Shown here piece by piece: positions 5,173 through 23,940 of a stretch of 64,000 nucleotides of DNA. The DNA is from Escherichia coli (lineage in GTDB: Bacteria; Pseudomonadota; Gammaproteobacteria; Enterobacterales; Enterobacteriaceae): the NCBI RefSeq assembly GCF_024223415.1, contig NZ_CP100500.1; one strand, given 5' to 3'. The translations under genes were made by a program, and so were the position numbers. Under the pieces are notes generated by a model. It was not told the origin of the DNA, searched no databases, and saw only the letters and a program-made list of their open reading frames with translations. Numbering within the stretch: the first letter of the stretch is position 1; each line of letters opens with the position of its first letter.

Positions 5173-5187
5173 CACGCGGAGAATGTT

Positions 5188-6769: not shown

Positions 6770-6772
6770 ATC

Positions 6773-7669: not shown

Positions 7670-8225
7670 CAGGAAAAAAACAGACAGCGCACAGCACAGT
7701 ACATCACTGCTTCCACCGTCCGCAGGGCCATTCATGCGCGCCACAGAGGCGACAGGAGTACGCATCAGTACCATACCGGTGGACGCCGACACCCTGTGGT
7801 CGCCGGACCGCTGCCCTGCTCACCTCCTGCCCTACCTTGCATGGGCATGTTCCGTTGACAGCTGGGACCGCAACTGGCCGGAAGAGACCAGGCGACAGGT
7901 GATTCGGGACGCATGGATGATACATCGCCACAAAGGGACCATCAGTGCACTCCGCCGCATCGTTGAACCACTGGGCTACCTCATCCGTGTATCAGAATGG
8001 TGGGAGTTTGACGGCTCGCCCGGGACCTTCACCATTGAGATTGGCACACTTGAAACCGGAGTAAGTGAAGAGCTGCATGAAGAAATGGAGCGTCTGATTG
8101 CCGATGCGCGCCCCGTCAGCCGCCACCTCGTGGGGCTTAGTATCATCCAGGAAATACACGGTGCCATTTACGCCGCTGCCGCAGGTTACGACGGCGACAT
8201 CATCACCATTTACCCGGAAGACTGA
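7662..8225 (+). CDS. I: baseplate/tail fibre-attachment protein, P2 gpI family
   Basis: GAAGGAGGA SD before the ATG at 7662. Contains a LLPYLAWACSVDSWD motif typical of gpI. Overlaps the gpJ end. Confidence 0.8.
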   Translation: MSDRKKTDSAQHSTSLLPPSAGPFMRATEATGVRISTIPVDADTLWSPDRCPAHLLPYLAWACSVDSWDRNWPEETRRQVIRDAWMIHRHKGTISALRRIVEPLGYLIRVSEWWEFDGSPGTFTIEIGTLETGVSEELHEEMERLIADARPVSRHLVGLSIIQEIHGAIYAAAAGYDGDIITIYPED

Positions 8226-8228
8226 ACC

Positions 8229-10463
8229 ATGAGCACGAGAAAATTCAGAACCCTTATCACCGACATCGGGCTGGCAAAGCTGGCCGCAACAACGGCGCCT
8301 GGCGGTAGACCTGTACGCCTTACGCACATGGCTGTAGGGGACGGCAATGGAGAGCTTCGTCAGCCGCAGAAAAACCAGACATCGCTTTACAATGAGGTTT
8401 GGCGCCAGTCTGTCAACCGCGTCTTCACCGACCCGGAGAACCCGAACCGCCTCATCGCCGAACTGGTCATTCCTCCTGAAACCGGCGGATTCTGGGTGCG
8501 TGAAATTGGTGTGTTTGATGATACAGGTACAATGATTGCAGTAGGAAATACCGCTGAAAGTTACAAGCCCACCAGAGAGGAAGGTTCAGGGCGGGCGCAG
8601 ATATTCCGTGCAGTAATCACCGTCACCTCCGACGCCGTGGTGGAACTGGTCATGGACACAACAACAATTCTGCCGACCACGGACTACATTGATGAGAAAA
8701 TAGCGGAACACGCACGTTCCCGTAACCACCCTGACGCGACACTGACAGAAAAAGGATTCACCCAACTGAGCAGCGCCACAAACAGCACCTCTGAAACACT
8801 GGCCGCCACACCGAAGGCCGTCAAGGCTGCATATGACCTTGCAGCCGGTAAAGCACCCGCCAGCCACACCCACCCGTGGAATCAGATAACAGGTGTGCCA
8901 TCAGCCTCGCTGACGGCAAAAGGCACCGTACAGCTGAGCAGTGCCACAAACAGTGAGTCAGAGACTGAGGCCGCCACCCCCAAAGCGGTTAAAGCCTTAC
9001 ACGATATGGTGACGAGCAAGTATACAGGACAGGATGCAACCACCGGACGCAAAGGCATCGTACAGCTGAGCAGCGCCACAAACAGCAATTCCGAAACACT
9101 GGCGGCCACACCGAAGGCAGTAAGTGATGCACTGAGCATGGCGTTCGTGAAGCCAACAACATCCCTGGGGGAAACAGACCTGAACACTCTGGGGAGTAAG
9201 GAAGACGCGGGAGATTATTACCAGCAGAGTGACTCAGGTGCGAGAACAGACAGAAACTATCCTGTAGAGAAGGCAGGAGAGTTACGCATCCGTGTTGGTG
9301 CATGGGGATTCTGCCAGCATGAATACACGAGCTGGGATCCGCCACGAAAATTTATCAGGACAGTTACCGGAAACTTTAACGGTAACGGCCCATGGTCAGA
9401 GTGGGTGGAGGTGACAAACACAGATGCAACAACTGGACGCAAAGGCATCGTACAGCTGAGCAGCGATACAAACAGCAATTCCGAAACGCTGGCGGCCACA
9501 CCAAGAGCCGTCAAGGCTGCATATGACCTTGCAGCCGGTAAAGCACCCGCCAGCCACACCCACCCGTGGAATCAGATAACAGGTGTGCCATCAGCCTCGC
9601 TGACGGCAAAAGGCACCGTACAGCTGAGCAGTGCCACAAACAGTGAGTCAGAGACTGAGGCCGCCACCCCCAAAGCGGTTAAAGCCTTACACGATATGGT
9701 GACGAGCAAGTATACAGGACAGGATGCAACCACCGGACGCAAAGGCATCGTACAGCTAAGCAGCGCCACAAACAGCAATTCCGAAACGCTGGCGGCCACA
9801 CCAAAAGCTGTTAAAGCTGCGTATGACCTTGCCAACAGCAAAGCCTCGGCAGCCCACACTCATCGCTGGGCTCAGATCACAGACGCCCCTGTTTTTTCGT
9901 CTGTTGCCCGCGTCATCATGGGTAAACAAAGCATAAAAGATATTCTTGATTACCTTGGTTTAGGAGAAGGCTCGACGCTGCCAGTTGGCGTACCCGTTCC
10001 GTGGCCTTCGTCAAGACCACCTGAGGGGTGGTTACAGTGCAACGGTGCCGCATTCACGCGTACAAAATACCCAAAACTGGCGGTGGCCTACCCTGACCTC
10101 AGGCTACCAGATTTGCGCGGGGAATTTATTCGTGGATGGGATGACCTGCGAATGATTGACAGGGGACGCTTATTGTTATCCACACAGGAAGCAACATATA
10201 TTTGTACCGCCATACAGGCGTACCACGGCGTAGCGGGAGGTGCAGATATTCAGGCAGGGATTTCATTTGCATCACATGATAACGACATCATAAACATAAC
10301 CCCTGATCAACCCAGAACCGGTAACGGCATCCTGTACGGCACAAAACCAGTTGACAGATGGGCAATAGCCAGAGCCGGTAAGCTGGTGAGTAATGAAAAA
10401 GACAGATGGATAGCGATCAGACCGCGCAATATCGCTTTTAATTATATTGTGAGGGCAGTTTAA
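8229..10463 (+). CDS. H: tail fibre protein, P2 gpH N-terminus with a mosaic distal part
   Basis: The first ~200 aa are colinear with remembered P2 gpH (KFRT.IT..G.AKLAA.TAPG..., AELVIPPE.GGFW.RE.G..DD.GT.IAV.N.AESYKP). Six QLSSATNS.SET.AATPKAV repeats. C-terminal tail-collar-type motif PEGWLQCNGAAF...YPKLAVAYP...LPDLRGEFIRGWD. Confidence 0.9.
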   Translation: MSTRKFRTLITDIGLAKLAATTAPGGRPVRLTHMAVGDGNGELRQPQKNQTSLYNEVWRQSVNRVFTDPENPNRLIAELVIPPETGGFWVREIGVFDDTGTMIAVGNTAESYKPTREEGSGRAQIFRAVITVTSDAVVELVMDTTTILPTTDYIDEKIAEHARSRNHPDATLTEKGFTQLSSATNSTSETLAATPKAVKAAYDLAAGKAPASHTHPWNQITGVPSASLTAKGTVQLSSATNSESETEAATPKAVKALHDMVTSKYTGQDATTGRKGIVQLSSATNSNSETLAATPKAVSDALSMAFVKPTTSLGETDLNTLGSKEDAGDYYQQSDSGARTDRNYPVEKAGELRIRVGAWGFCQHEYTSWDPPRKFIRTVTGNFNGNGPWSEWVEVTNTDATTGRKGIVQLSSDTNSNSETLAATPRAVKAAYDLAAGKAPASHTHPWNQITGVPSASLTAKGTVQLSSATNSESETEAATPKAVKALHDMVTSKYTGQDATTGRKGIVQLSSATNSNSETLAATPKAVKAAYDLANSKASAAHTHRWAQITDAPVFSSVARVIMGKQSIKDILDYLGLGEGSTLPVGVPVPWPSSRPPEGWLQCNGAAFTRTKYPKLAVAYPDLRLPDLRGEFIRGWDDLRMIDRGRLLLSTQEATYICTAIQAYHGVAGGADIQAGISFASHDNDIINITPDQPRTGNGILYGTKPVDRWAIARAGKLVSNEKDRWIAIRPRNIAFNYIVRAV
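8817..9105. repeat. ~290-bp direct repeat inside gpH, copy 1
   Basis: Near-identical by eye to 9507-9795 (offset 690 bp), e.g. tcaaggctgcatatgaccttgcagccggtaaagcacccgccagccacacc occurs at 8821 and 9511. Confidence 0.85.
9507..9795. repeat. ~290-bp direct repeat inside gpH, copy 2
   Basis: See copy 1. The two copies bracket 9106-9506, which encodes a knob-like domain. Confidence 0.85.
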
Positions 10464-11074
10464 TGAGTAACACTGCAGTTCTGGATGAAAACGGTATCGC
10501 CACTTTCGCAGGCGATATCACTGTATATCACTATGATGAGGAAACCCGGGAATACACCTCATCCTCTGTGGAGTATCTGGCCCTGGGGGTGGGTACCCCG
10601 GCACATTCATGCGCCGATGCCCCGCCAGAGGCAATGCCGGGTTACGTGATTTGCCGGACGTCCACGCTGGACGGGTGGGAGTATGTCCCCGATCATCGTG
10701 GAGAGACGGTATACAGCACAGAGAACGGTAATCCGGTCCAGATTACCCAACCAGGTGACTACCCGGAAGGGACAACGACAAAACAGCCTGCCACACCATG
10801 GGATACCTGGAACGGTGAGGCGTGGGTAACCGATACAGAACGGCAGCAAGCCGAAGAGCTGGAGGTTGCCAGACAGCAACGCAAGGAACGGGTGGATCAG
10901 GCGATGAAGTCCATCGACCTCATCAACCTTAAGTTGCGGGCAGGTCGCAGTCTGACACCAGAAGAAACGGCAAAACTGAATGCCGTGCTGGATTATATCG
11001 ACGAGCTGAACGCACTGGATATCAGCACGGAGCCTGAAATAAGCTGGCCGGAAACACCACCAGAAATGGAATGA
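10463..11074 (+). CDS. G: tail fibre assembly chaperone (P2 gpG / Tfa family)
   Basis: TAATG overlap with the gpH stop. 203 aa with the typical Tfa features (W.W....W......) and a C-terminal coiled-coil-like part. Confidence 0.8.
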   Translation: MSNTAVLDENGIATFAGDITVYHYDEETREYTSSSVEYLALGVGTPAHSCADAPPEAMPGYVICRTSTLDGWEYVPDHRGETVYSTENGNPVQITQPGDYPEGTTTKQPATPWDTWNGEAWVTDTERQQAEELEVARQQRKERVDQAMKSIDLINLKLRAGRSLTPEETAKLNAVLDYIDELNALDISTEPEISWPETPPEME

Positions 11075-11117
11075 GCGGGGAAAAGGAACGGGCATTCATA
11101 AATAATTCATCATGCAG

Positions 11118-11137
11118 GTGCCGCAAGAATGCGGCAC
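11118..11137. terminator. hairpin between the convergent gpG and gpU genes
   Basis: GTGCCGCA-agaa-TGCGGCAC, a perfect 8-bp stem, lies between two convergent stop codons (11074 and 11145). There is no strong T-run. Confidence 0.45.
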
Positions 11138-11144
11138 ATTACCT

Positions 11145-11633
11145 TCACATCAGATCATTTACGCCGCTTACTGTGGTATTCCAGACCGAACTTAACTTCC
11201 CTTTCATTCCCGAAAGCATATCAGACACCGGTGACGAGGCCATACTCTCCCGCAAATCCTCATCACAGCGTTCCAGACTGACAGTGAACTCAATTTTTTT
11301 GGCCTTACCGTGGCGGTCAAGTTCGCTTCGCGTTGTGCGGACAGCCGTTATCACATACATGCCGTATATCTGCCCCACACCGTCAATCAGCGGCCATGGG
11401 CGACCAGTGTAAGCCTGCGTCGTTAAAAGGCTGAGGGAAACCTCACCGCCGGTAATTTCGGGATAAAGCACACCGGACAACGTGATCTGGTCGTCACCCG
11501 CCCCGATATACTGCCAGCTGGCCGAACGATTGATGCGTTCATTTTTAACGTGGCGCCAGGTTTTATTATGTTGCAGTTGTTGATGAGGCAGCGTACGCAA
11601 CTCAAAAACAAACATGCCGTAAATCATCATCAT
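11145..11633 (-). CDS. U: tail protein, P2 gpU family
   Basis: FVFELRTLPHQQL...WRHVKNERI...ITLSGVLYPEITGG...GRPWPLIDGVGQIYGMYVI is colinear with remembered P2 gpU. Confidence 0.85.
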   Translation of the reverse strand: MMMIYGMFVFELRTLPHQQLQHNKTWRHVKNERINRSASWQYIGAGDDQITLSGVLYPEITGGEVSLSLLTTQAYTGRPWPLIDGVGQIYGMYVITAVRTTRSELDRHGKAKKIEFTVSLERCDEDLRESMASSPVSDMLSGMKGKLSSVWNTTVSGVNDLM

Positions 11634-11644
11634 GCGAGGTACTC

Positions 11645-14600
11645 CTAATCTCTGTCACGGAAACTACCGACTGTCTGGCGGATACGGCGTTCCATTTCCG
11701 CACGGACGGCATCACCCACCATTTTTGCCAGTTCGCGCGGGTTTTGCGTGTGAACATCATGCAGGTGAATATGCAGTTCGCCAGTTAATCCCCATGGTGC
11801 CGCCTCACTCTGGCGCGGTCGGGGCGATGCGGGGGATATGGGCTGGCGCACAGCCTCAACCACCGGACGGGATGTTGCCGCCATCACTGGTGTCATTAGC
11901 GGGGAGAACGTCGGCATGACATCGTGAGTCATAACCGGTTTGATCACCGGCGGAACCACTGGCGTAATATTACCGGACAGTACCGGACGGACGACCGGAG
12001 GAATAACCGGCACATTATTCACGGACACCACCGGCTTCACGACCGGCGACACGTTCGCCGTGGTGGATATCAGCGGCGAAACACTGACAGGCGGTGGCGC
12101 TGGCAGCGGTGGCAACGAAGGCACACTGACCGACGGCACCTGCGGCAGTCTGACAGGTGGCTCACTGACACTACCCGGTAACAGGGAAGCTGCGCGGTTA
12201 AAGCGTTCCTCCTTCCACTCACCACGAACGGCCAGCGCTTCCGGCAGGTTTTTAAAGATAATATCGCCGGGACCAGCGCGTTTTTTCGCCTGTTTCGCCT
12301 CATCCAGCAGACCACCGGTGTTATCGACGATTTTGTTCAGGCGGCGCATAGTGCCGGTATTCTCCCCCGTCAGGGGTGGTTGCCCCCCTTTGGGTTTTTC
12401 GCCGTATTTTTTATCCTCGTCCTTTTTCGGCGGATTAATGACGTTAACATCCGCCAGAAGCATGGCAGCTTTCTCGTTCAGCAACTCCTTCTGTTTTAGT
12501 TCTTCCGCTTTTTTCCGGGCGCGCTCAACCGCTGACGGAATCAGCCCGAGTTTTTCCAGCACCCGGGTTAATGAGTCAATCAGCAGCGTAACCGGACCGG
12601 TCACCAGATTGCTGATAAACTCCCCGACCTTCTGCCCGAACGTCCGCCCGGCTTCCGTGCACTTGTCCAGCTCATCCTTTGTTGTGCTTACCGGCGCGAA
12701 CAAATCCACGAACCACTGCCACACACGCCCGATTGTCTGCCCGACATACTCAAACAATGGTCCCAGTGGTGCCACAGCCTCGCGCAGTGGCGTAAGCCCC
12801 TGCCACAGGCCGGACAAGAACCCGCCCACGACAGCCTTCAGCTGGTCCCAGTGCCGCCAGATAAGCACTGCCGCACCGACCAGTGTCGCCACCACAAGGC
12901 CCACCGGACTTAACAGAAAACCCAGCGCCCCGCCAAGTGCGCCCACCGCACCACTCACCATCCCCCACAGTGCGGGCAGACCTGACAGTCTGAGCGCCAG
13001 TATTCCGATACCGCGCCCCAGTGAAATCAGTGCGCCGCCAGGTGAAGTGAACGCAGCCAGCAGACCACCACGCAGCGCGCCAAGTCCCGCCTGCACACCA
13101 CGAAGCCGCCCCGCAACTACGCCCAGCAGTGCAGCAAACCGTCCGGCACCGGAGGTGATACCGACAAACAGCACGCGCCAGCCACCGATACCGCCCAGCG
13201 GACCACCGAGTACGCCGCGCAGCTGCGTCAGTAACGGCAGCGCACGACCGAGGCCGGATGTGCCGGTCAGCAGGGCAAACCCAAGACGCAGTTTTGCCAG
13301 CGGCCCCATCAACACACCAGTGGCAAGTGACAGCGCCCCCATGGCCGCAACCGCAGCCAGCAGTACACCACCGGCAATCAGCAGTTGTTTTGTCAGTTCA
13401 GGGTGCGCCTGAGCCAGCGCGGTGACTTTCGCAATAACCCGGGTGAACGACTGCGTGACAGAACGCAGCGGCCCGTCAACGAGGTCAGCGATACGGATAC
13501 GCAGTCCTTCCCATGCGCTGTTCAGTGATTTCAGGTCACCGTCCAGGTTATCAACCATAACACGGGCAGTCTGATTAAGTTCCCCGGTGGCCAGTTCAAT
13601 CTCCTGCGTAAGACGGGGAAGATTATTTTCCCCCGCCGCAGTGACAAGATTCATCAGGGAAACATAGGACTCCTGCCCGGCAATAGCCCTGAAAAAGGAG
13701 ACCTGCGCGGCATTACCGTATTTTCGGGTGGCCTGGTACAGCTCATTCAGGATATTTTCCATCCGGCGCATGTTCCCGTAAGCATCCTGCGTCTCCACGC
13801 CAAGCTCTTTCAGTGCCATTGCAGCGGCCTTCGGCGGATCAACCAGACGTGACAGACTGGCACGCAGCGCCGTACCTGCATCACTTCCACGGATCCCCAC
13901 ACTGCCAAGGACACCCGTCATGGCTGCCGCCTGTTCAAGGGACAGGCCAAGTGAAGCTGCAACCGGCCCCGTGTACTTCATGGTTTCACCCAGCGAACGG
14001 AGATCCGTATTGGTTCGTGTGAAGGTGGCGGCCAGCGTGTCACCCACGCGATCCATCTGGTCAGCGGACAGACCAAACTGTGTGAGGATATTCGAACTGA
14101 TATCGGCAGTCTGTCCCAGGTCCATCCCTGCAGCCATTGCCAGATCAAGCACGCCGGGTAGCGCCGCCTGTATGGCCTGTGGTGTGAAGCTGGCCATGGC
14201 AAGGAACGCCTGACCGCTGGCAGCATCACCGGCGGTAAACTGCGTTTCAGAGCCCAGCTTAATGGCCTGTTCGCGCAGCGCCTTAAACTGCGGACTGTTT
14301 TTGTCAATACGGGTCAGCGCCTGGACGCGCGACATCTCCTTACCAAAACTGACCGCCGGTTGCAGGAAACGTCCGGCCGCATAGCCGCCTGCCGCCGCCG
14401 TACCAACCGCCGTAAGTCCGACCGTTTTAAGTTTTCCCGCCGTCTCCTGAGCACGGGAATATTGCTGGCGTGCCTGCGTGACACGTGCCAGCGCCTGCCG
14501 TTCGCGTTCCAGCTGGTCGTTGTATTGCTGTGTTCGCCGTATGGCCTGTTGAATGGTGTTGTCACTGCCGGAAAGCGCAATACCGTGGCGCCGCAGCTCA

Positions 14601-14956
14601 CCACCCAGTTCGCGCATTCGCTGAACTTCACGCGCACGGACCTCATTGAGACGCTCAAGTTTGAGGCTCAAATCGTTCATCAGCTTTTTCTGTTTGTCAG
14701 ACAGCACGGTTCCGGCGCGCTGAATTTGCTGAAGTGCGCTTAACTGGCGTTGCGCCCTGACAATGCCGTTTCCGGCCTTGTTTGCAGCCTCGCGGGCGCG
14801 ATCAAATGAACGGGCGTGGCGTTCCAGGTTTTTGATCGCACCCTGCGTTCTCTGTATGGAGTCGCCAAGCTGGCCCATCATGCGACGGGCGTTTTCGGTG
14901 GGACGGGTCAGCCTGTCAACAGCGCTGAAGGCGACCCGTATATCAAGCGTTTTCAT
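11645..14956 (-). CDS. T: tail tape measure protein, P2 gpT family
   Basis: About 1100 aa: coiled-coil N-terminus, central Gly/Ala-rich TM-like region and a P/V-rich C-terminal repeat region. The ATG at 14956 overlaps the E' stop as in P2; the ORF-track GTG at 14992 is less likely. Confidence 0.85.
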   Translation of the reverse strand: MKTLDIRVAFSAVDRLTRPTENARRMMGQLGDSIQRTQGAIKNLERHARSFDRAREAANKAGNGIVRAQRQLSALQQIQRAGTVLSDKQKKLMNDLSLKLERLNEVRAREVQRMRELGGELRRHGIALSGSDNTIQQAIRRTQQYNDQLERERQALARVTQARQQYSRAQETAGKLKTVGLTAVGTAAAGGYAAGRFLQPAVSFGKEMSRVQALTRIDKNSPQFKALREQAIKLGSETQFTAGDAASGQAFLAMASFTPQAIQAALPGVLDLAMAAGMDLGQTADISSNILTQFGLSADQMDRVGDTLAATFTRTNTDLRSLGETMKYTGPVAASLGLSLEQAAAMTGVLGSVGIRGSDAGTALRASLSRLVDPPKAAAMALKELGVETQDAYGNMRRMENILNELYQATRKYGNAAQVSFFRAIAGQESYVSLMNLVTAAGENNLPRLTQEIELATGELNQTARVMVDNLDGDLKSLNSAWEGLRIRIADLVDGPLRSVTQSFTRVIAKVTALAQAHPELTKQLLIAGGVLLAAVAAMGALSLATGVLMGPLAKLRLGFALLTGTSGLGRALPLLTQLRGVLGGPLGGIGGWRVLFVGITSGAGRFAALLGVVAGRLRGVQAGLGALRGGLLAAFTSPGGALISLGRGIGILALRLSGLPALWGMVSGAVGALGGALGFLLSPVGLVVATLVGAAVLIWRHWDQLKAVVGGFLSGLWQGLTPLREAVAPLGPLFEYVGQTIGRVWQWFVDLFAPVSTTKDELDKCTEAGRTFGQKVGEFISNLVTGPVTLLIDSLTRVLEKLGLIPSAVERARKKAEELKQKELLNEKAAMLLADVNVINPPKKDEDKKYGEKPKGGQPPLTGENTGTMRRLNKIVDNTGGLLDEAKQAKKRAGPGDIIFKNLPEALAVRGEWKEERFNRAASLLPGSVSEPPVRLPQVPSVSVPSLPPLPAPPPVSVSPLISTTANVSPVVKPVVSVNNVPVIPPVVRPVLSGNITPVVPPVIKPVMTHDVMPTFSPLMTPVMAATSRPVVEAVRQPISPASPRPRQSEAAPWGLTGELHIHLHDVHTQNPRELAKMVGDAVRAEMERRIRQTVGSFRDRD

Positions 14957-15469
14957 GCTCTGCGTTCCCGCTGCGAAGGGCCGCCCGCTCACGCCAGGCG
15001 ACCACCTCGCCGGGATCCATCAGGAAGATTTCAGCGGGAGACCAGTTGAAAATAACGGCGATATCCGCCACAAAGTCTTCAATGTGCTCAAAGGGCACGA
15101 CGGTTATCAGCCTGCCGTCGCCGCCCCGCTCTTCCCGCCAGAGTCCTGACCGGCCAAAAAATTAACCGCCACCCCGCACAGCTGAATAAAATCAGCGGAC
15201 CCCATGCGCTTAAGCAGAACCTCGTCCAGTCGCGGCGAAGTGACGCGCGGGAGTAACTCAAACATCGCGTCCGTTTTCATGTTCAGCACGTCAAGCAGTG
15301 ACAGCCCGCGCAGTGAACCGGCCTGCTGTACAGCAGGCGTGATTTCCACATACGTGATTTTTTTGTTACCGAGCACAAGGGGCGTTTTCAGCGTCACGCC
15401 GCGCTCACTGGTCACGTCCGCCGCATCAGCACCGTCAGTAACAGGGGCAACAACCGGATTTTCTTTCAT
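14943..15469 (-). CDS. E': tail assembly chaperone E+E' (programmed -1 frameshift product)
   Basis: After the slippery TTTTTTG the -1 frame stays open to the TGA at 14943-14945. It encodes ...PFEHIEDFVADIAVIFNWSPAEIFLMDPGEVVAWRERAALRSG..., the usual E' tail. Confidence 0.75.
15107..15469 (-). CDS. E: tail assembly chaperone, P2 gpE family
   Basis: GAGG SD. LRGLSLLDVLNMKTDAMFELLPRVTSP resembles P2 gpE (LRGVSLAAVANSEVDALIKVLPRMTAP). Confidence 0.85.
   Translation of the reverse strand: MKENPVVAPVTDGADAADVTSERGVTLKTPLVLGNKKITYVEITPAVQQAGSLRGLSLLDVLNMKTDAMFELLPRVTSPRLDEVLLKRMGSADFIQLCGVAVNFLAGQDSGGKSGAATAG
15155..15161 (-). other. -1 ribosomal frameshift slippery heptamer T TTT TTG
   Basis: Plus strand reads CAAAAAA, which is TTTTTTG on the coding strand near the end of gpE. 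This is the same heptamer as the P2 E/E' site. Confidence 0.75.
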
Positions 15470-15519
15470 GCATAAAACCTCAAATCAGGGGGCGACGCCG
15501 CGCGCCGCCGTGGGAAACA

Positions 15520-16038
15520 TTAACCACCAAGACCAATCGCCGAGCGCACGCGGTCCGGGAAGACGTTTTTGCCGTCCTTGCGTTCGATGTGGTTCAGTAA
15601 ATCAATCTCCAGCACCGGACGGTCGTTAATGCTGAGTTTGTAGTAGGTACTCCTGACCGCATAGGTGTGAGACGTGACCTCACCCTGTTTTGCCTCCCCC
15701 GTATCAATTTCCGTCACGCGGCCGCGAAGCTCAATTTCATACAGGTCGCTCTGCTCTTCATCGTTGTAGTACTCACCGACAAAGCGCAGCAGCGTACCGT
15801 CGATCGTGCCGCCGTACTTAAGGAACAGTTCGCGGGTCGGCCCGCCCATGGTGAAACTCGCATCCAGCGCGCCGTCATCCAGACCAAGGTCGATATTCAC
15901 CGCGCCGGCCATACCACCACCGCGATAGGCTTCCGTTTTACGGGTCAGTTTGGGGGGCGTGAAGCCGGTCACCCTGCCAATCTGGTTCACCCCGTCAGTA
16001 AACAGCGTGAACACCCTGAGATTTTTTGGTACGGCCAT
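15520..16038 (-). CDS. FII: tail tube protein, P2 gpFII family
   Basis: 172 aa, the same length as P2 FII. TAATG overlap with the sheath stop. Confidence 0.9.
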   Translation of the reverse strand: MAVPKNLRVFTLFTDGVNQIGRVTGFTPPKLTRKTEAYRGGGMAGAVNIDLGLDDGALDASFTMGGPTRELFLKYGGTIDGTLLRFVGEYYNDEEQSDLYEIELRGRVTEIDTGEAKQGEVTSHTYAVRSTYYKLSINDRPVLEIDLLNHIERKDGKNVFPDRVRSAIGLGG

Positions 16039-17321
16039 TAAGCACCTCCAAGCGTCGCAAATGCAGGACCAAAGAATTCATCAGTAAACGTCTGGTAAAG
16101 TTCCATATCCTCAAGCGGCGGAACGGGCGTGTACTTGTAGCGGATACGCACGCGTCCCTGACGAAGTTCCGTGGTGCTGTTATCCACCACGTCATACCAG
16201 CACTCCGCACCAATGAGACGTCCTGACGTAACCAGCGCATCCAGTTTTGCGCGAATTGCGCTTAACACGTCTTTCACATTAGCAGGGGTCAGCGGGGCAT
16301 CAATCGTTTCAAACTGCGCTTCCGCAATGGAATCAGCCAGCACCTGAGCGGTTCGCGTGTACACCTCAAAGATATACGCCTTCGTTTCCGGCGTACGGTT
16401 GCCCCAGAAGCGGAAACCGTTACGGCAAATGATGGTAGTGATTTCCTTGTTGTTGAGATTGTTGGCATCGCTGTCTTCGGACTGAAGGGACCAGAACACC
16501 GGGCTGGAAATACCCAGCACATTTGTTACCGGCACGTTGGACAGCGATTTATGCCAGCCCTGTTCGTGGTCAATACGTGCACGTAAACCGCAGGCGTACG
16601 CCGCAGCCGGGAAGACCTCATTAGCGCCGGATTTCGGGTTATAGGCGATGAAGTCAGGCCAGAGCAGCATAAGTTCGCGCTCGTTAAATCTGGCGCGGTA
16701 GCTGATTGCATCAGCGGGCTTCTTGCAGTTGTGACAGCCCGCGTAGACAAATGCGCGAAGTTTTTCTGCAATTACACACAGGGATTTTGTGACAGCTTCA
16801 GTATCCAGTCCGGGAGCTGCGATGATGCGCGGACGGTAACCGATGGCATCATCCTGTTCAGCTATCAGAAGTGCATACATACCGGTATAATTACCGTCGC
16901 CATCCGTGCCACCAATGACATACTGGTCCTGCGTTTTGTGTGGGTATACAGGATGTGCATCTTCAGACTCATCAATACCAAAAAATGCCCTGTCTTCAGG
17001 ATCCAGATGACCGAATGATGTAACTCCTGTATCCGGGGCGCCCTGAGAACTGGTATCAGGAACGCGCACCACAATCACCTTCGTGCTCACCTGGTCGGCG
17101 ACAGCCTTAAGCGATTTGTAAAGCGTCCCCTTTGTGCCGGCCTTACCCAGCACATCACTGACGCGGGTCAGCAGTGTGGGTTTGTTCAGCGGGAACAGAG
17201 TTTCATCCGCGTCATCTGCCGTAGCCACAATACCAATAACACTGGAATCCACATCATTAATGGCGGTGGCAAGGCCGGTACTTTCCCTTACGCGCGCACC
17301 ATGAAAGCGTGTTTCACTCAT
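16038..17321 (-). CDS. FI: contractile tail sheath protein, P2 gpFI family
   Basis: MSETRFHGARV...IGIVATADDADETLFPLNKPTLLTRV...AGTKGTLYKSLKAVADQ is colinear with the remembered P2 FI N-terminus. The 49-codon upstream extension in the ORF track is rejected. Confidence 0.9.
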   Translation of the reverse strand: MSETRFHGARVRESTGLATAINDVDSSVIGIVATADDADETLFPLNKPTLLTRVSDVLGKAGTKGTLYKSLKAVADQVSTKVIVVRVPDTSSQGAPDTGVTSFGHLDPEDRAFFGIDESEDAHPVYPHKTQDQYVIGGTDGDGNYTGMYALLIAEQDDAIGYRPRIIAAPGLDTEAVTKSLCVIAEKLRAFVYAGCHNCKKPADAISYRARFNERELMLLWPDFIAYNPKSGANEVFPAAAYACGLRARIDHEQGWHKSLSNVPVTNVLGISSPVFWSLQSEDSDANNLNNKEITTIICRNGFRFWGNRTPETKAYIFEVYTRTAQVLADSIAEAQFETIDAPLTPANVKDVLSAIRAKLDALVTSGRLIGAECWYDVVDNSTTELRQGRVRIRYKYTPVPPLEDMELYQTFTDEFFGPAFATLGGA

Positions 17322-17394
17322 ATGTTTCACCCTTGTCTGGCTGGTTGATTTTGCGTAATCATTACCCACACACGCGGTAATCTCACCCCTTTGA

Positions 17395-17418
17395 TGTTGT
17401 CTCCTGACAGCGACAACA
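17395..17418. promoter_or_regulatory. Ogr/Delta-type late-promoter activator site (TGT-N12-ACA dyad)
   Basis: TGTTGTC-tcctgacagc-GACAACA. The inner TGT (17398-17400) and ACA (17413-17415) are exactly 12 bp apart. It lies in the divergent FI/D intergenic region, about 55 bp upstream of a plausible FI transcription start. Confidence 0.55.
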
Positions 17419-17482
17419 AAACAGCCATTCAACGCCGCTGCGGTGCATGAAACCATTACAGAACGCACCAGGAGAGAACACC

Positions 17483-18574
17483 ATGAAAGAGCTGTCAGTT
17501 ACCGTTCCGTCACCGGATATCGACATCACCATCAACAACAACACACTGGCAAACCTCACAGAGCGACTCATGACGCTGACCCTGACGGATAACCGGGCCT
17601 TTGAGGCAGACCGCGTCACCCTCACCCTTGACGATACGGACGGGCAGTTACAGTTGCCACCACGTGGCGCACGCCTGAGAGTGATGATTGGCTGGCGAGG
17701 AGAATCACTGGTTAACAAGGGCACCTACGTCGTTGATGAGGTTGCGTGGGAAGGACCTCCAGATAAACTGATCATCACCGCCAGCAGCGCAGATTTTCGG
17801 GAAGAGTTCAACGTGAGGCGGGAGGTATCCTGGCACGACGTGACCGTAAAACAGGTTGTGTCAGCCATCGCTCACCGCTACGGCCTGAAGACACAGATAA
17901 GCGAAATCCTCATGGATATCGAAATTGACCACGCTGACCAGACCGAAGAGAGCGATATATCCTTCCTGACCCGCATGGCTGAAATGCTGGGTGCGATTGC
18001 CACCGTAAAAAACGGCAGCCTGTTATTCATTCTGCCGGGTGGCGGAACCGGGCCGGACGGAAGAGCCCTGCCTTCGTTCGCCATTACCCGCAGCAGCGGC
18101 GACAGTCACCGCTTTCGCATTGCTGACCGTGATGCGTATACGGGGGTCCGGGCGCACTGGCTCGATCTGAAGTTCGGGCAAAAGAAAAAAGTGAACGTGA
18201 AGCGACGCAGGGAAGCCGGGAAACAGAAACAGGAGAAGAGCAGCAGCCGGGAGGGTGATTACATGGAAGGCGCGGAAGGGAACGTCTACGTTCTGCGCAG
18301 GACTTACCAGAATGAAGAAACCGCACGACGTGCAGCTGCGGCAAAGTGGCAGGAGTTACAGCGGGGAGCAGCGGCATTCTCCATCACTCTGGCACGGGGT
18401 CGTGCCGACCTGTACCCCGAAATGCACGGCAGGGTAACAGGTTTTAAAAGCGAGGTGGACAATCAGGACTGGATTATTGCCAGGGTGGAGCACATCATAG
18501 ATGAAAGCGGCTTCACCACACAACTGGAGCTGGAAGCGAAAATCCCCGAATGGATAGCAGATTCAGGCGGATAA
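17483..18574 (+). CDS. D: late control/tail protein, P2 gpD family
   Basis: GGAGAG SD. LMTLTLTDNRAFEADRVTLTLDDTDGQLQLPPRGA is the hallmark gpD motif. Confidence 0.85.
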   Translation: MKELSVTVPSPDIDITINNNTLANLTERLMTLTLTDNRAFEADRVTLTLDDTDGQLQLPPRGARLRVMIGWRGESLVNKGTYVVDEVAWEGPPDKLIITASSADFREEFNVRREVSWHDVTVKQVVSAIAHRYGLKTQISEILMDIEIDHADQTEESDISFLTRMAEMLGAIATVKNGSLLFILPGGGTGPDGRALPSFAITRSSGDSHRFRIADRDAYTGVRAHWLDLKFGQKKKVNVKRRREAGKQKQEKSSSREGDYMEGAEGNVYVLRRTYQNEETARRAAAAKWQELQRGAAAFSITLARGRADLYPEMHGRVTGFKSEVDNQDWIIARVEHIIDESGFTTQLELEAKIPEWIADSGG

Positions 18575-18617
18575 AATTAAAATGAGCCATCTCCACTCAG
18601 CCAGATAAGGAGAAGCC

Positions 18618-18869
18618 ATGTTCCGTTGTCCCCTATGCGGTGCATCCGCACGTATCCGCACCAGTCGCAATGAAAATGATTCAGGCACAGTTCGCCTGAA
18701 GTACTACCAGTGCAATAACCTCGAATGCGGGATCGGCTTTACCACACTGGAGGGTTTTAACAAATTCACATCAAAACGCGCCCCGTCGCCGCAGGGTACA
18801 GAGCGGATACCGTGGGAAGATTTTCCGGGATCTCACAGGGGGAATACTCAGATTAATCTTGATATTTAA
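18618..18869 (+). CDS. ogr: late gene transcription activator, Ogr/Delta zinc-finger family
   Basis: MFRCPLCGASARIRTSR...YYQCNNLECGIGFTTLE matches P2 Ogr (MFHCPLCQHAAHARTSR...YHQCQNVNCSATFITYE) with the CxxC...CxxxxC arrangement. Confidence 0.9.
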   Translation: MFRCPLCGASARIRTSRNENDSGTVRLKYYQCNNLECGIGFTTLEGFNKFTSKRAPSPQGTERIPWEDFPGSHRGNTQINLDI

Positions 18870-18918
18870 GAACAATAATCAGGTTGAGAGGACATCATAA
18901 GGCAAGTAGATTAACGGC

Positions 18919-19013
18919 AGATACTTTCCCGCAACCACGGGCAAGTATTTAATTATCCATGATGAAATATGACCTAAATTGTTTTTTGCCCGCCGGAAAG
19001 CGGGCATTTTTTT
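18919..19013 (+). ncRNA. predicted sRNA, A-type copy A0 (directly after ogr)
   Basis: Promoter TTGAGA (18884-18889), 17-bp spacer, TAGATT (18907-18912). Internal hairpin CCCG-caacca-CGGG. Terminator GCCCGC-cggaaa-GCGGGC (18988-19005) followed by a T-run. The 5' end is estimated. Confidence 0.45.
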
Positions 19014-19227
19014 ATTCTTTTGTGGTTATGGGGTCATCAGGAACCACGTGCAGATTATATTTTTGTTTTTTTGGCGTTCCTCCGGCAGCAACGAGTTCAT
19101 CAATAAGACACTGACACGCCTGAACATCCCGGGCATGTCTTAGTTTCACCTTTATTGATTTAACCTTATCCTCACCGGAGGAGAAATGCAGTTCAATCTC
19201 AATATCGTTTCTTCGGAACAATCTCAT
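19012..19227 (-). CDS. hypothetical small protein R1 (71 aa), the only intact copy of a triplicated ORF
   Basis: MRLFRRNDIEIELHFSSGEDKVK.... The start with an SD is conserved in the two decayed copies (AGGAGG in copy 2). The stop abuts the bidirectional terminator. No family recognised. Confidence 0.4.
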   Translation of the reverse strand: MRLFRRNDIEIELHFSSGEDKVKSIKVKLRHARDVQACQCLIDELVAAGGTPKKQKYNLHVVPDDPITTKE

Positions 19228-19321
19228 ACGCCCCCTGAATATATCAGAAATACTAGTATCGAAAAATGAGAAAACAGTTAGACAGGAGAAACATATTAAC
19301 ACAAATCATTTATACCTATAG

Positions 19322-19339
19322 ATGAAATTATAATTTCAT
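19322..19339. promoter_or_regulatory. perfect 18-bp palindrome ATGAAATTATAATTTCAT between divergent R1 and B1
   Basis: Read directly from the sequence. Degenerate versions sit at the same place in unit 2 (~20497) and unit 3 (~21143). Confidence 0.4.
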
Positions 19340-19371
19340 TCATGAATATGATAGATAACTATATTGTGAAC

Positions 19372-19478
19372 AAAATGAAAAATGGCTAAATTAAAAATGG
19401 GCATGGAGGAATGCCCGGTTATCAATATAATGTGACGTAGATCATTGTTTTGCCCGCCGGAGAGCGGGCATTTTTTTT
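19372..19478 (+). ncRNA. predicted sRNA, B-type copy B1
   Basis: -10 TATATT at 19360-19365. Hairpin GGGCAT-ggagga-ATGCCC. Terminator hairpin 19452-19469 followed by T8. Ends are estimated. Confidence 0.35.
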
Positions 19479-19582
19479 GCGCCTGCCATCGAGGCGCCTT
19501 CCCTGGCGCACACAAAGCAGCCCTGATTTTCCATGAAAACTTCAGGGTTGAGCTGCGGGCACAAAGTGAGTAGATTAGCTAC

Positions 19583-19679
19583 GGGTACCTCCCCCTGACA
19601 ACAGGAAGGGTGTCCATTATCCATGATATACAAACGAAAAGTCTTGTTTTTTGCCCGCCGAAGCGCGGGCATTTTTTTA
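19583..19679 (+). ncRNA. predicted sRNA, A-type copy A1 (immediately upstream of hok locus 1)
   Basis: TTGAGC (19548-19553), 17-bp spacer, TAGATT (19571-19576). 5' hairpin around CCUGACAACAGG. Terminator 19653-19670 followed by T7. Confidence 0.45.
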
Positions 19680-19723
19680 TGCATCAGACAAGATACAGCC
19701 CACCCCAACTGACACCTGAAATA

Positions 19724-19752
19724 TTGCCGCAACAAAAAGAAACAGTTAAATT
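19724..19752 (+). promoter_or_regulatory. candidate hok/mok mRNA promoter
   Basis: TTGCCG (19724-19729), 16/17-bp spacer, TTAAAT/TAAATT (19746-19752). The predicted start coincides with GGGUGCCUU (19759-19767), which is complementary to a 3' element (20102-20110). Confidence 0.5.
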
Positions 19753-19794
19753 ACGCGCGGGTGCCTTTCGGCTGATGGCCGGAGGGAAAACCTG

Positions 19795-19864
19795 AAGGCC
19801 GGATGTGGAAAGGCCCCGGAAAACATTTCTGTTTAACCGAGGCCCTAACCGCATTACCTTGACA
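19795..19864 (-). ncRNA. sok: candidate Sok-like antisense RNA (ends approximate)
   Basis: Minus-strand promoter TTGCTC (19899-19894), 17-bp spacer, TAACCT (19876-19871), overlapping the hok SD. The transcript would cover the mok start at 19805, as in R1 hok/sok. No terminator could be resolved. Confidence 0.35.
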
Positions 19865-20038
19865 AGTGAAAGGTTAGCGCCTCTCCGGAAAAGGAGCAAG
19901 TGCTATGTCGCAAAAATCGCTTACGGCCATCACGTTCTGCGTGACGGCAATCCTCATCATCTGGATATTGCACGGTTCGCTGTGCGAAATACGGATGAGC
20001 TTCTGGGGAGCGGAGTTTGCGGCGTTCTTACAATGTAA
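19805..20038 (+). CDS. mok: mok-like overlapping reading frame
   Basis: 77-codon ORF with a GAAGG SD. It starts 100 nt upstream of hok and overlaps almost all of it in another frame, which is the hok/mok architecture. Confidence 0.5.
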   Translation: MERPRKTFLFNRGPNRITLTSERLAPLRKRSKCYVAKIAYGHHVLRDGNPHHLDIARFAVRNTDELLGSGVCGVLTM

Positions 20039-20045
20039 GAAGTAA
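19905..20045 (+). CDS. hok: Hok/Gef-family type I toxin (46 aa)
   Basis: AAGGAG SD. MSQKSLTAITFCVTAILIIWILHGSLCEIRMSFWGAEFAAFLQCKK has one TM plus the SLCE...AAF motif of Hok proteins; closest by memory to HokA. Confidence 0.8.
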   Translation: MSQKSLTAITFCVTAILIIWILHGSLCEIRMSFWGAEFAAFLQCKK

Positions 20046-20134
20046 GGAAACCGCGACGGGGGAGCAATCCCCCGTCAATCGGTTGCCAGGGTAAGGTCGA
20101 TAAGGCACCCTATCTCACAGACATGAACAAACAA

Positions 20135-20167
20135 ACCCGCAGCATAAAAACTGCGGGTTTTCTTTTT
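20135..20167 (+). terminator. intrinsic terminator of hok locus 1
   Basis: ACCCGCAG-cataaaaa-CTGCGGGT followed by TTTTCTTTTT. Confidence 0.7.
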
Positions 20168-20298
20168 GGTGTCCTCACCGACTTGAAACAGTGATCAGAC
20201 TATAAGACAAAGCCCGCAATGTTGCGGGCTTACTCTACCTCTCGAAAATGTGGTCACTGCGTGGACATACGCTGATACAAATCCTTTATATCAATAAA

Positions 20299-20397
20299 TT
20301 AAATCTTTGTTTTTTTCATCAACAATGATTTAACCTTATCCTCACCGGAGGAGAAATGCAGTTCAATCTCAATATCGTTTCTGTGGAACAGCCTCAT
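20299..20397 (-). pseudogene. truncated copy R2 of the small ORF (32 codons)
   Basis: MRLFHRNDIEIELHFSSGEDKVKS is identical in pattern to R1; it then diverges and stops. An AGGAGG SD is retained. Confidence 0.4.
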
Positions 20398-20544
20398 AAG
20401 ACAACCTCCTGAATTCATCAGAAACACAGTCAACTGAAAACCAGAAAGCAGACAAACAGTGGACACACATTAATACAAATCATTTATACCTATAGATGAA
20501 ATTGCAGTTTCATCTATAACATGACAGGTAACAATATTGTGAAA

Positions 20545-20651
20545 AAACTCAAAACTCGTTAGATTAAAGACGGACAGAGCAATGCTACTTTATCAATAAC
20601 ATGTAACCTGTACTTCCTTATTTTGCCCGCCGAAGCACGGGCATTTTTTTT
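20545..20651 (+). ncRNA. predicted sRNA, B-type copy B2 (divergent body)
   Basis: -10 AATATT near 20533. Terminator 20625-20642 followed by T8. The body differs from B1/B3. Confidence 0.3.
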
Positions 20652-20755
20652 GCGCCTGCCATCGAGGCGCCTTCCCTGGCGCACACAAAGCAGCCCTGAT
20701 TTTCCATGAAAACTTCAGGGTTGAGCCAAAAGCACAAAGACAGTAGATTAACCAC

Positions 20756-20849
20756 GGGTGCCTTCCACCTGACAACAGGAAGGGTGTCCAGTATCAATGA
20801 CAGACAACTCACATTGCTGTTTTGCCCGCCGGAAAGCGGGCATTTTTTT
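20756..20849 (+). ncRNA. predicted sRNA, A-type copy A2
   Basis: TTGAGC (20721-20726), 17-bp spacer, TAGATT (20744-20749). Hairpin CCTTCC-acctgacaaca-GGAAGG. Terminator 20824-20841 followed by T7. Confidence 0.45.
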
Positions 20850-20981
20850 ATTCTTTTGTGGTTATTGGGTCATCAGGAACAACATGCAGATTATGCTTTG
20901 ATTTTTTTGGTGTTATTACAGCAGCAACGAGTTTATTAATAAGACACTGACATGCCTGAACATCCCTGACATATCATAATA

Positions 20982-21053
20982 TCACTTTATTTTTTTAGCT
21001 TGTCCTTTCTGGAGCAGAAATATCTCAACATCGTTTCTGTGGAACAACCTCAT
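20982..21053 (-). pseudogene. decayed copy R3 of the small ORF (stop after 23 codons, internal deletions)
   Basis: MRLFHRNDVEIFLLQKGQAKKIK*. Flanking DNA is still alignable by eye to the R1 gene. Confidence 0.35.
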
Positions 21054-21192
21054 TTGCCCTTGAATGTATCATAAATATCAGCATCGGAAAACCAACAGCA
21101 ATACAGAAGAAACATGTTAATGCAAATCACTTATACCTATAGATGAAATTACAGTTTTGTTCATAAATATGATAAGTAACTATATTGTGAAT

Positions 21193-21300
21193 AAAATGAA
21201 AACTAGCTAAATTAAACGTGGGCATGGTGGAATGCCTCGTAATCAATAATACATGATCCGTACTTCCTTGTTTTGCCCGCCGGAAAGCGGGCATTTTTTT
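21193..21300 (+). ncRNA. predicted sRNA, B-type copy B3
   Basis: -10 TATATT at 21181-21186. Hairpin GGGCAT-ggtgga-ATGCC. Terminator 21275-21292 followed by T7. Confidence 0.35.
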
Positions 21301-21404
21301 GGCGGTTACCATCGCCTCACCTTCCTGGTTCACATGAAGCAACCCTGATTTTCCATGAAAACTTCAGGGTTGAGACAAAAGCACAAAGACAGTAGATTAA
21401 CCAC

Positions 21405-22626: not shown

Positions 22627-23940
<1,314 letters not shown>

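Follow-up and report, generated by a model that had tools for sequence, protein, structure and literature searches.

An inverted FI-U tail block is the ordinary gene order of a large branch of P2-like phages

Introduction

In phages P2 and 186, the tail genes FI-FII-E-T-U-D form one forward operon in which D comes last, overlaps U and lacks a promoter of its own, and the gene for the late activator (ogr in P2, B in 186) has its own sigma-70 promoter in the gap after D (80 bp in P2, 65 bp in 186). Their late promoters carry a TGT-N12-ACA dyad about 55-58 nt upstream of the start, and one such dyad is common to the divergent promoters pP and pO: the P2 record gives a single activator site at 3057-3087 for pP (start 3016) and pO (start 3127), 55.5 nt each way. 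TGT-N12-ACA is the published P2 late-promoter consensus, and one dyad has likewise been assigned to both the P and O promoters of Smp131 (PMC3931495). The colinear tail order is that of P2, Fels-2, 186 and phiCTX, and also of the Burkholderia P2-like phages KS5, KS14 and KL3 (PMC3091744).

A second arrangement, with the U-FI block reversed, is annotated in P88 and P884B11 (Xuanwuvirus), phiT5282H (Novemvirus), 3LV2017 (Reginaelenavirus) and ST16-OXA48phi5.4 (Reipivirus), and thus in four ICTV genera of Peduoviridae. Among phages with this order, P88 is plaque-forming, with a burst of about 65 (PMC5285337), and PhiSM forms plaques and lysogenises K-12 (PMC6456863). The P88 paper speaks of "similar functional modules" and leaves orientation unremarked, the Xenorhabdus tailocin paper reports inversions of the fibre region only, and our full-text literature search found no paper explicitly describing the inversion or the FI/D promoter pair.

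The locus studied here comprises the late (tail) genes of a P2-like prophage adjoining serS in Escherichia coli. It lies in a 64,000-nucleotide stretch of contig NZ_CP100500.1 (assembly GCF_024223415.1), hereafter the window, which begins within gene O and does not take in the left half of the prophage with int, the repressor and the replication genes. The initial annotation had taken the order of its tail genes for a rearrangement of this one prophage, possibly an impairing one. Comparison with related loci instead identifies it as the normal working gene order of a large, catalogued branch of Peduoviridae, and so as ordinary.

Gene content and order

Pfam and PHROG scans together with the list of open reading frames place V-W-J-I-H-G, D and ogr on the plus strand and U, T, E/E', FII and FI on the minus strand (Table 1), in agreement with the initial annotation, and the PGAP annotation of a 99.7% identical E. 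coli copy (locus coordinate = window + 9601) gives the same gene ends. The complete set of V, W, J, I, H, G, FI, FII, E, T, U, D and ogr homologues is present, with a Pfam or PHROG match for every gene. P2 proteins match the window at 36-55% identity by tblastn, and the proteins of P2 and 186 are 40-55% identical to those of the prophage. Compared with P2 and 186, the segment that begins at the FI promoter (P_F) and ends with U lies inverted, with intergenic breakpoints, as had been proposed. V-G, at 5841-11074, comprises baseplate and fibre genes.

Table 1. Features of the prophage tail region, in window coordinates
Feature	Position	Strand	Basis and remarks
gpV	5841-6422	+	Pfam/PHROG; PGAP of 99.7% identical copy
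gpW	6419-6769	+	Pfam/PHROG; PGAP of 99.7% identical copy
gpJ	6773-7669	+	Pfam/PHROG; PGAP of 99.7% identical copy
gpI	about 7662-8225	+	Pfam/PHROG; PGAP of 99.7% identical copy
gpH	8229-10463	+	Pfam/PHROG; PGAP of 99.7% identical copy
gpG	10463-11074	+	Pfam/PHROG; PGAP of 99.7% identical copy
Convergent G-U spacer, 70 bp	11075-11144		Sequence, fold; hairpin at 11118-11137
gpU, tail protein	11145-11633	-	PF06995 Phage_P2_GpU, E = 2.8e-41
gpT, tape measure	11645-14956	-	PF10145, E = 1.4e-51; ORF list; start per PGAP; single open frame of ~1100 aa
E' extension via -1 frameshift (predicted)	14943-15161	-	Heptamer TTTTTTG at 15161->15155; -1 frame open to 14943
gpE, tail chaperone	15107-15469	-	phrog_103 tail protein, E = 4.7e-31
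gpFII, tail tube	15520-16038	-	PF04985, E = 1.8e-44
gpFI, tail sheath	16038-17321	-	PF04984, PF22671, PF17482; phrog_23, E = 4.7e-120; start 17321 per PGAP
Predicted -10 hexamer of FI promoter P_F, AATGAT	17358-17363	-	Conserved ATnAT block; predicted start near 17351
Predicted Ogr/Delta-type activator dyad, TGTTGT-N12-ACAACA	17395-17418		Core TGT-N12-ACA 17398-17415; centre 17406.5
Predicted extended -10 of D-ogr promoter P_D, TGaAACCAT	17448-17456	+	Conservation; predicted start near 17462
gpD, baseplate hub / late control D	17483-18574	+	PF05954; phrog_52, E = 2.2e-148; PGAP start
ogr/Delta-like zinc-finger late activator	18618-18869	+	phrog_603; PGAP 'ogr/Delta-like zinc finger family protein'
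Intrinsic terminator 3' of ogr	18987-19016	+	Terminator scan, sequence; TGCCCGCCGGAAAGCGGGCA then T run

All frames of the tail region are open, and the E' frameshift site is intact, as the initial annotation had also stated. The slip site reads T TTT TTG in the E frame, and the E' frame overlaps the start of T. This is the P2-like pattern of a TTTTTTG heptamer and an E' reading frame running into T, and we predict a programmed -1 frameshift from it. PGAP labels 14943-15098 in the 99.7% identical copy 'GpE family phage tail protein'. Besides this frameshift at TTTTTTG, P2 and 186 share with the prophage the gene set, the ogr-type activator and a terminator in the same place after ogr or B; the gap between D and ogr is only 43 bp in the prophage. 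The most likely start of gpD is the ATG at 17483, which has a ribosome-binding site, AGGAGA, at 17470-17475; an upstream ATG at 17447 is less likely. No tandem repeats were found in 11000-17600, leaving the long tape measure without a repeat-based explanation.

The G-U junction

The convergent ends of G and U enclose a hairpin with an 8-bp G+C-rich stem by folding. The hairpin noted here in the initial annotation is thus real, but as a terminator it is non-canonical, having none of the A and T tracts that mark the textbook bidirectional type, and the terminator scan did not list it. Most related loci have a hairpin directly after U, and the one here is a probable stop for both converging transcripts, V-G and FI-U. 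In relatives, the G-U junction is a cargo site; that of P88, for example, holds an invertase along with alternative fibre genes.

The initial annotation had also pointed to TCATGCA...GAATG in both the G-U and FI-D junctions. The inverted match exists, but at chance level. Its 7 nt are the longest inverted match between the junctions, an inverted 7-mer is shared by the two spacers in 35% of shuffles (P about 0.35), and the compound motif recurs in 11% of shuffles. We therefore rejected the repeats as recombination scars. The TGCATGA half of the match overlaps the conserved -10 block on the D side of the FI-D spacer.

The FI-D spacer

FI and D diverge across a 161-bp spacer that contains a predicted Ogr-type dyad with a predicted -10 element on either side. 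Only two perfect copies of the 12-base extended dyad exist in the 48.5-kb prophage locus, one here and one in the P-O spacer, against a chance expectation of ~0.003 matches (48,501/4^12). Elsewhere in the first 19.5 kb the only other TGT-N12-ACA lies inside gene R and looks like chance. No third late-promoter dyad was found 5' of V or R, though the pattern used does not detect the pV site of P2 either.

Across 63 distinct related spacers, conservation extends to the dyad and to both -10 blocks, which lie at -44 to -49 and +42 to +52 from the dyad centre. Six phages from four genera all have the same right half-site, ACAACAAAA; the left half is degenerate in several relatives, with TCT for TGT, as in phiT5282H and ST16-OXA48phi5.4, whereas 3LV2017 keeps TGT. 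On the P_F side it is the ATnAT block, 44-49 nt left of the centre, that is conserved across the 63 spacers, and the T, G, A, C and T positions of the P_D element, conserved in the same spacers, are invariant in the six phages. Within the prophage itself, the D-side element and its O-side counterpart (TGcCATCAT) have an identical offset from their dyad centres, +41.5 to +49.5. Elements about 45 nt to each side of a dyad reproduce the geometry of P2's shared pP/pO site. By eye, the P-O and FI-D spacers have the dyad and the spacing in common and no wider sequence similarity, and common descent of the two spacers was rejected on that ground.

A sigma-70 consensus scan that took in the FI-D spacer and the D-ogr gap gave nothing useful, with no promoter and no -35/-10 consensus in the spacer. 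Because activator-dependent promoters lack a -35 element, this blank is expected, and it lends no support either. Judged from conservation and spacing, P_F and P_D would be active promoters dependent on Ogr. The initial annotation had concluded that the inversion severs gpD from its usual operon; the FI-D spacer instead offers D a conserved promoter-like region of its own, and gpD is probably not orphaned.

Relatives and distribution

The closest described phages, P88, P884B11 and Citrobacter phage PhiSM, have the same order and strands as the prophage, with a hok/gef-type gene after ogr. In P88-type phages the FI-D region is collinear with that of the prophage at about 76% nucleotide identity, gpD, gpFI and gpU are 78-80% identical to their counterparts, and the dyad half-site and -10 blocks of the spacer are conserved. 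They differ in carrying an invertible alternative fibre segment and a DNA invertase between G and U, where the prophage has 70 bp, and the P88 tape measure is ~170 aa shorter. P88 and P884B11 align to only about 11% of window positions 5000-20000, at about 80% (megablast). Genera of the ICTV are conventionally set at about 70% nucleotide similarity over the full length. Over window 5000-20000 and the FI-D region, the portion available in a window that starts inside gene O, the prophage falls outside Xuanwuvirus in the strict sense, and by these alignments it represents a species, and probably also a genus, different from those of P88 and P884B11.

Enterobacter phage phiT5282H and the Klebsiella phages 3LV2017 and ST16-OXA48phi5.4 have the same inverted block and divergent FI/D pair, with gpD 67-73% identical to that of the prophage, but differ in hosts, fibre genes and cargo. 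The G-U junction is short in phiT5282H and 3LV2017, as in the prophage, and holds DUF262 genes in ST16-OXA48phi5.4. A single collinear match covered at least 80% of the FI/D junction query in 24 phage records, and 58-78% of it in Serratia phage KSP20 and further Klebsiella phages.

We also surveyed species-representative genome loci, namely the closest 80 of 360 gpD relatives, a sample in which rarer exceptions could be missed. The order was inverted outright in 57 and partly in three short loci. The 57, together with the window and four phage loci, make 62 of 62 fully classifiable loci whose gpD reaches 58% identity or more to that of the window, 58% being the lowest gpD identity within the inverted clade; among the closest 80 of 360, every fully classifiable locus with gpD at 54% identity or less was colinear. 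The 62 span more than 25 bacterial genera, and in this sample all their hosts belong to Enterobacterales except for one contig labelled Vagococcus. The window sits within this clade: U-T-E-FII-FI opposes V-G and D-ogr, its FI-D spacer of 161 bp compares with roughly 110-220 bp in the clade, and its gpD is 67-77% identical to those of clade members versus 47-49% to those of P2 and Fels-2. Both its gpD and its gpFI group with inverted-order phages rather than with P2, 186 or Fels-2. In E. coli, the divergent FI/D junction appears in one collinear match in 1162 of 5426 complete genomes (about one fifth). The stretch 10400-18900, including both junctions, is matched collinearly by 27 complete genomes; identity is at least 99% for 26 of these and 95-99% for the remaining one. 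The synteny comparison with other P2-like phages suggested in the initial annotation thus returned an order conserved in a described lineage.

Origin of the inverted order

Very probably, the prophage belongs to a deep branch of Peduoviridae whose standard order (V-G, reversed U-FI, D-ogr) goes back to one ancestral inversion, with separate transcription units and a shared Ogr dyad. We infer a single-inversion history in which the segment from the FI promoter through U would have turned over once, in the ancestor of the branch, and been inherited since. In neighbour-joining trees, whether of gpD or of gpFI, the inverted and colinear orders fall cleanly apart, which fits one old event, and an inversion is the most economical evolutionary account of the order. 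Since U and D abut in P2, the translation start of D would have needed some mending had a P2-like ancestor undergone a perfectly clean inversion.

An exchange of modules, by which a foreign FI-U cassette with its promoter was acquired in the opposite orientation from another P2-like phage, would fit the mosaicism of P2-like phages, among which rearranged tail clusters are known, for example in Smp131 (PMC3931495), and with U and D abutting in colinear phages, a clean cut between them would be awkward. The block bears no sign of foreign origin, however: identity to P2 is alike for genes within it (FI 43%, FII 40%, U 50%) and beyond it (V 46%, J 55%, D 48%), and the tree of gpFI divides the phages as that of gpD does, so we regard this origin as unlikely.

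Distinctly unlikely is the opposite polarity, with the inverted order ancestral and that of P2 and 186 derived. The direction of change rests on few outgroup phages, the trees are unrooted, and the inverted clade is very diverse, down to its minimum gpD identity. Against this, the colinear order occurs in distant outgroups, Pseudomonas phiCTX and Burkholderia KS5, KS14 and KL3, as well as in P2, 186 and Fels-2, and the inverted order is confined to Enterobacterales hosts in this sample, bar the Vagococcus-labelled contig.

We consider it very improbable that the block is a reversible switch flipped by a Gin/Cin/Pin-type invertase. A DNA invertase does lie exactly at the G-U junction of P88 and P884B11, and serine invertases can use secondary sites. 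Yet the P88 enzyme flanks the usual alternative fibre segment, the 70-bp G-U interval here holds no invertase ORF, and the junctions share no inverted repeat beyond chance. The opposite orientation was seen neither in the 62 fully classifiable clade loci nor among the 27 near-identical E. coli copies. The marks of an invertible segment are crossover repeats at both ends, an adjacent invertase and both orientations in nature; the prophage shows neither of the first two, and the third was not seen in these loci and copies.

A recent inversion specific to this prophage, perhaps leaving gpD without a promoter and the phage crippled, is just as hard to credit. The order does differ from that of P2 and 186, and one 99.7% identical copy has a tape-measure pseudogene flag and an IS element in the early region, so some copies are decaying. 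But this reading fails because the same order is conserved and functional in a described lineage: it is common to the four genera, the 62 loci and the 1162 E. coli genomes, P88 and PhiSM form plaques with it, and the FI-D spacer is a conserved promoter-like region. An assembly artefact joining a contig segment in the wrong orientation, which has nothing in its favour beyond the unusual order and which the initial annotation had wanted excluded, is excluded, its probability negligible, because the two junctions recur unchanged in 27 complete E. coli genomes that were assembled independently, and the junction architecture is also kept in isolated phage genomes.

Under the ancestral inversion, V-G and FI-U would be separate transcription units converging on a short hairpin spacer, and FI-U and D-ogr would diverge from the 161-bp spacer, whose symmetric Ogr dyad has -10 elements about 45 nt to each side; this division into separate units would be what lets the arrangement work. 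One bound activator would then turn on both the FI promoter and the D-ogr promoter, as at P2's single pP/pO site. We give about even chances to the further idea that the inversion was tolerated because the Ogr dyad is symmetric: once P_F had flipped and stood back-to-back with D, one site could drive both FI-U and D-ogr, copying the P/O arrangement.

Implications

Minor as a discovery, the inverted order here signals neither misassembly nor defect nor a recent event. It does mean that P2 and 186 are not a universal synteny template for "P2-like" phages, and scoring prophage integrity against P2 order would raise false alarms in about one fifth of complete E. coli genomes. As a candidate bidirectional late promoter that is compact and conserved, the FI-D spacer could be of use in studying how one Ogr-type site serves two promoters. 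If the proposed arrangement is true, four late transcription units in this branch would be under the control of two bidirectional Ogr sites, and ogr, lying in an Ogr-activated operon, would form a positive feedback loop absent from the P2 layout.

Gene map of the window prophage

Genes were identified from an ORF list together with Pfam and PHROG scans, all of which agree with the initial annotation in placing V–G, D and ogr on the plus strand and U–FI on the minus strand (table below). Gene ends match those that PGAP assigns in an E. coli copy with 99.7% identity (locus coordinate = window + 9601), and an in-frame ATG at 17447 is a less likely gpD start than 17483, because PGAP uses the latter and AGGAGA lies 7 nt upstream of it. 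As had been stated, the E/E′ frameshift site is intact, with T TTT TTG (15161→15155) in the E frame and a −1 frame open to 14943 that overlaps the T start. The prophage adjoins serS; the window starts inside the scaffold gene O, and the early half lies beyond its left edge.

Late-gene features of the window prophage and its right flank
Feature	Coordinates	Strand	Basis
gpV	5841–6422	+	Phage_base_V, spike and apex domains
gpW	6419–6769	+	Pfam/PHROG scans
gpJ	6773–7669	+	Pfam/PHROG scans
gpI	about 7662–8225	+	Pfam/PHROG scans
gpH	8229–10463	+	Pfam/PHROG scans
gpG	10463–11074	+	Pfam/PHROG scans
gpU	11145–11633	−	PF06995, E = 2.8e-41
gpT, tape measure	11645–14956	−	ORF list, Pfam/PHROG
gpE	15107–15469	−	Pfam/PHROG scans
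gpFII, tube	15520–16038	−	Pfam/PHROG scans
gpFI, sheath	16038–17321	−	Pfam/PHROG scans
gpD	start 17483	+	PGAP on 99.7% identical copy
ogr/Delta-type zinc-finger gene	18618–18869	+	Pfam/PHROG scans
Strong intrinsic terminator after ogr	18987–19006		Terminator scan and sequence
hok/gef toxin gene, phage-borne	19905–20045		
serS, host	22627–23919		

The tape-measure gene is a single open frame of about 1100 aa, ~170 aa longer than that of P88, and no tandem repeats accounting for the extra length were found. In E. coli NRZ14408, which holds the 99.7% identical copy (locus L088, 21234–24557), PGAP calls the gene a pseudogene that lacks its C-terminus. The early region of that same prophage carries an IS21-like ISEc12 (L088 3547–5849, left of the window start), so decay is under way in at least some prophages of this type. 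The matching RefSeq genome annotates no gene in the ~2.6 kb between hok/gef and serS (about 20050–22600), which may hold the attachment site or phage/host remnants.

The inverted order in described phages

Misassembly, a concern raised in the initial annotation, is excluded by the recurrence of both junctions in 27 complete E. coli genomes assembled independently of one another, which are collinear with window 10400–18900 (identity at least 99% in 26 and 95–99% in one). Among phage records, the closest are P88 and P884B11 (genus Xuanwuvirus) and Citrobacter phage PhiSM. Like the window, they are annotated with V-W-J-I-H-G forward, U, T, E′, E, FII and FI in reverse, and D, ogr and a hok/gef-type gene forward; at the G/U junction they carry an invertible alternative-fibre segment and a DNA invertase, whereas the window prophage has 70 bp. 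Only about 11% of window 5000–20000 aligns to P88 (megablast), and the prophage probably falls outside Xuanwuvirus as strictly defined.

We then used a 2.5-kb junction query across FI (reverse) and D (forward), for which a single collinear match requires divergent FI and D. It was covered to at least 80% in 24 phage records, including P88, PhiR44_2, Chuche, PhiSM, Enterobacter phiT5282H and a set of Klebsiella phages; Klebsiella 3LV2017 and ST16-OXA48phi5.4 and Serratia KSP20 gave the same collinear match at 66–76% coverage, and P2-type phages matched over part of D only. The junction lay in one collinear match in 1162 of 5426 complete E. coli genomes. Annotation of the inverted order in phiT5282H (Novemvirus), 3LV2017 (Reginaelenavirus) and ST16-OXA48phi5.4 (Reipivirus) brings the ICTV genera with this order, Xuanwuvirus included, to four. 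At least two such phages are functional: P88 is plaque-forming and has a burst of about 65 (PMC5285337), and PhiSM, also plaque-forming, lysogenises K-12 strains (PMC6456863). Our literature search found no paper remarking on the inversion; the arrangement is plainly visible already in deposited, classified and annotated genomes.

Extent and history of the inverted order

gpD was aligned across inverted and colinear phages, and a scan of one genome per bacterial species yielded 360 relatives, of which the closest 80 were kept with 10-kb flanks. Gene order was classed by tblastn with window and P2 proteins in these 80 loci, the window and six phage loci. The inverted order was found in 62 loci, with three short loci consistent with it, and the colinear P2 order in 20, with one partial; two were uninformative. 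Within this set (the closest 80 of 360 relatives plus phages), every fully classifiable locus is inverted where its gpD shares at least 58% identity with that of the window, and colinear where identity is 54% or less. Hosts of the inverted order include Salmonella, Serratia, Symbiopectobacterium, Edwardsiella, Enterobacter, Pantoea, Kosakonia, Erwinia, Brenneria, Klebsiella, Citrobacter, Pectobacterium, Providencia, Xenorhabdus, Photorhabdus, Morganella, Hafnia and Yersinia. Neighbour-joining trees built from 84 gpD and 82 gpFI sequences each contain a bipartition separating all inverted from all colinear members.

Because P2, Fels-2, 186 and Pseudomonas phiCTX (phage records) and Burkholderia KS5, KS14 and KL3 (PMC3091744) are all colinear, the P2 order is most likely ancestral, and the window order most likely a derived trait uniting an old enterobacterial branch. 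The order does differ from that of P2 and 186, as initially proposed, but the difference is conserved lineage-wide rather than specific to this prophage. This is the outcome that the initial annotation had named as refuting a rearrangement, and that reading gives way to a conserved order in a described P2-like lineage. The region belongs, as a typical member, to the P2-like family of tail and late genes and to the inverted-order branch within it, and the arrangement is real but ordinary.

One locus (L008; NZ_JBQPOM010000071.1, 'Vagococcus sp. WN89Y', match 10001–11050) is a P88-like enterobacterial prophage on a contig labelled as Gram-positive, with a gpD 77% identical to the window's and the layout of P88; the assembly is probably contaminated or mislabelled.

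Junctions of the inverted block

Comparison of the G/U and FI–D spacers gave a longest inverted match of a length (at least 7 nt) reached in 35% of shuffles. The initially reported TCATGCA...GAATG match is present at both junctions but arises in 11% of shuffles, which is chance level, and on the right-hand side it overlaps a conserved, predicted promoter element. Recombination scars are not expected, because the event predates 40% protein divergence. A reversible switch of the FI–U block is unlikely: no invertase gene lies between G and U, the junctions carry no significant inverted repeats, and the opposite orientation occurs in none of the 62 classified clade loci and none of the 27 near-identical copies.

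The 70-bp G/U spacer folds into an 8-bp G+C-rich hairpin (11118–11137), which lacks A or T tracts on its flanks and is absent from the terminator-scan list. Most clade members have a strong hairpin directly after U, often with A/T tracts on both sides, so the clade conserves a probable stop signal where the two units converge. In relatives, this junction is a variable cargo site, akin in role to the Z/fun site between G and FI in P2; it is empty in the window prophage (11075–11144), holds alternative fibre genes and a DNA invertase in P88 (locus L001, 7934–10082), and a DUF262 gene pair in ST16-OXA48phi5.4 (locus L005, 6142–8045).

A candidate shared activator site between FI and D

The 161-bp FI–D spacer holds TGTTGT-CTCCTGACAGCG-ACAACA at 17395–17418 (centre 17406.5), a perfect, extended form of TGT-N12-ACA, the dyad characteristic of Ogr-dependent late promoters in P2 (consensus cited in PMC3931495). 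Only two perfect matches to this 12-base pattern occur in the 48.5-kb E. coli locus containing the whole prophage, against a chance expectation of about 0.003 (arithmetic); the second, TGTTGT-CGGCATTCGCTT-ACAACA, lies in the P–O spacer. The P2 record assigns one activator site (3057–3087) to pP (start 3016) and to pO (start 3127) alike, with the dyad centre (3071.5) 55.5 nt from each start. In the window, the FI side has a conserved AATGAT (17363→17358) and a predicted start near 17351, and the D side a predicted extended −10, TGaAACCAT (17448–17456), and a predicted start near 17462, which precedes the D start codon by 21 nt and lies a little ahead of the ribosome-binding site. The O-side TGcCATCAT of the same prophage has an identical offset from its own dyad (+41.5 to +49.5). 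The right half-site ACAACAAAA and the extended −10 positions T, G, A, C and T are invariant across six phages of four genera, and the dyad and both −10 blocks are the best-conserved columns across 63 distinct clade spacers; the left half-site is degenerate in some relatives. Given this rarity, the P2 precedent, the geometry and the conservation, we think that FI–U and D–ogr are divergent late units sharing one candidate Ogr site. The initial annotation had gpD cut off from the operon that normally drives it, a loss that a D-side promoter at this site, proposed from sequence, would make good.

For V–G, no TGT-N12-ACA dyad was found upstream of V or R in window 3600–5900, where the sole match (4859–4876) falls inside R; the pattern also misses the pV site of P2. 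S overlaps V, and V–G may be expressed by read-through from the O promoter or from a promoter missed by this simple pattern. The D–ogr gap is 43 bp (18575–18617). The corresponding gaps of P2 (about 80 bp) and 186 (65 bp) carry the sigma-70 promoter of ogr (B) itself; a consensus promoter scan of the window gap found none.

The candidate bidirectional Ogr-dependent promoter is the one mildly new point, and it suggests that the inversion may have been tolerated because the activator site is symmetric.
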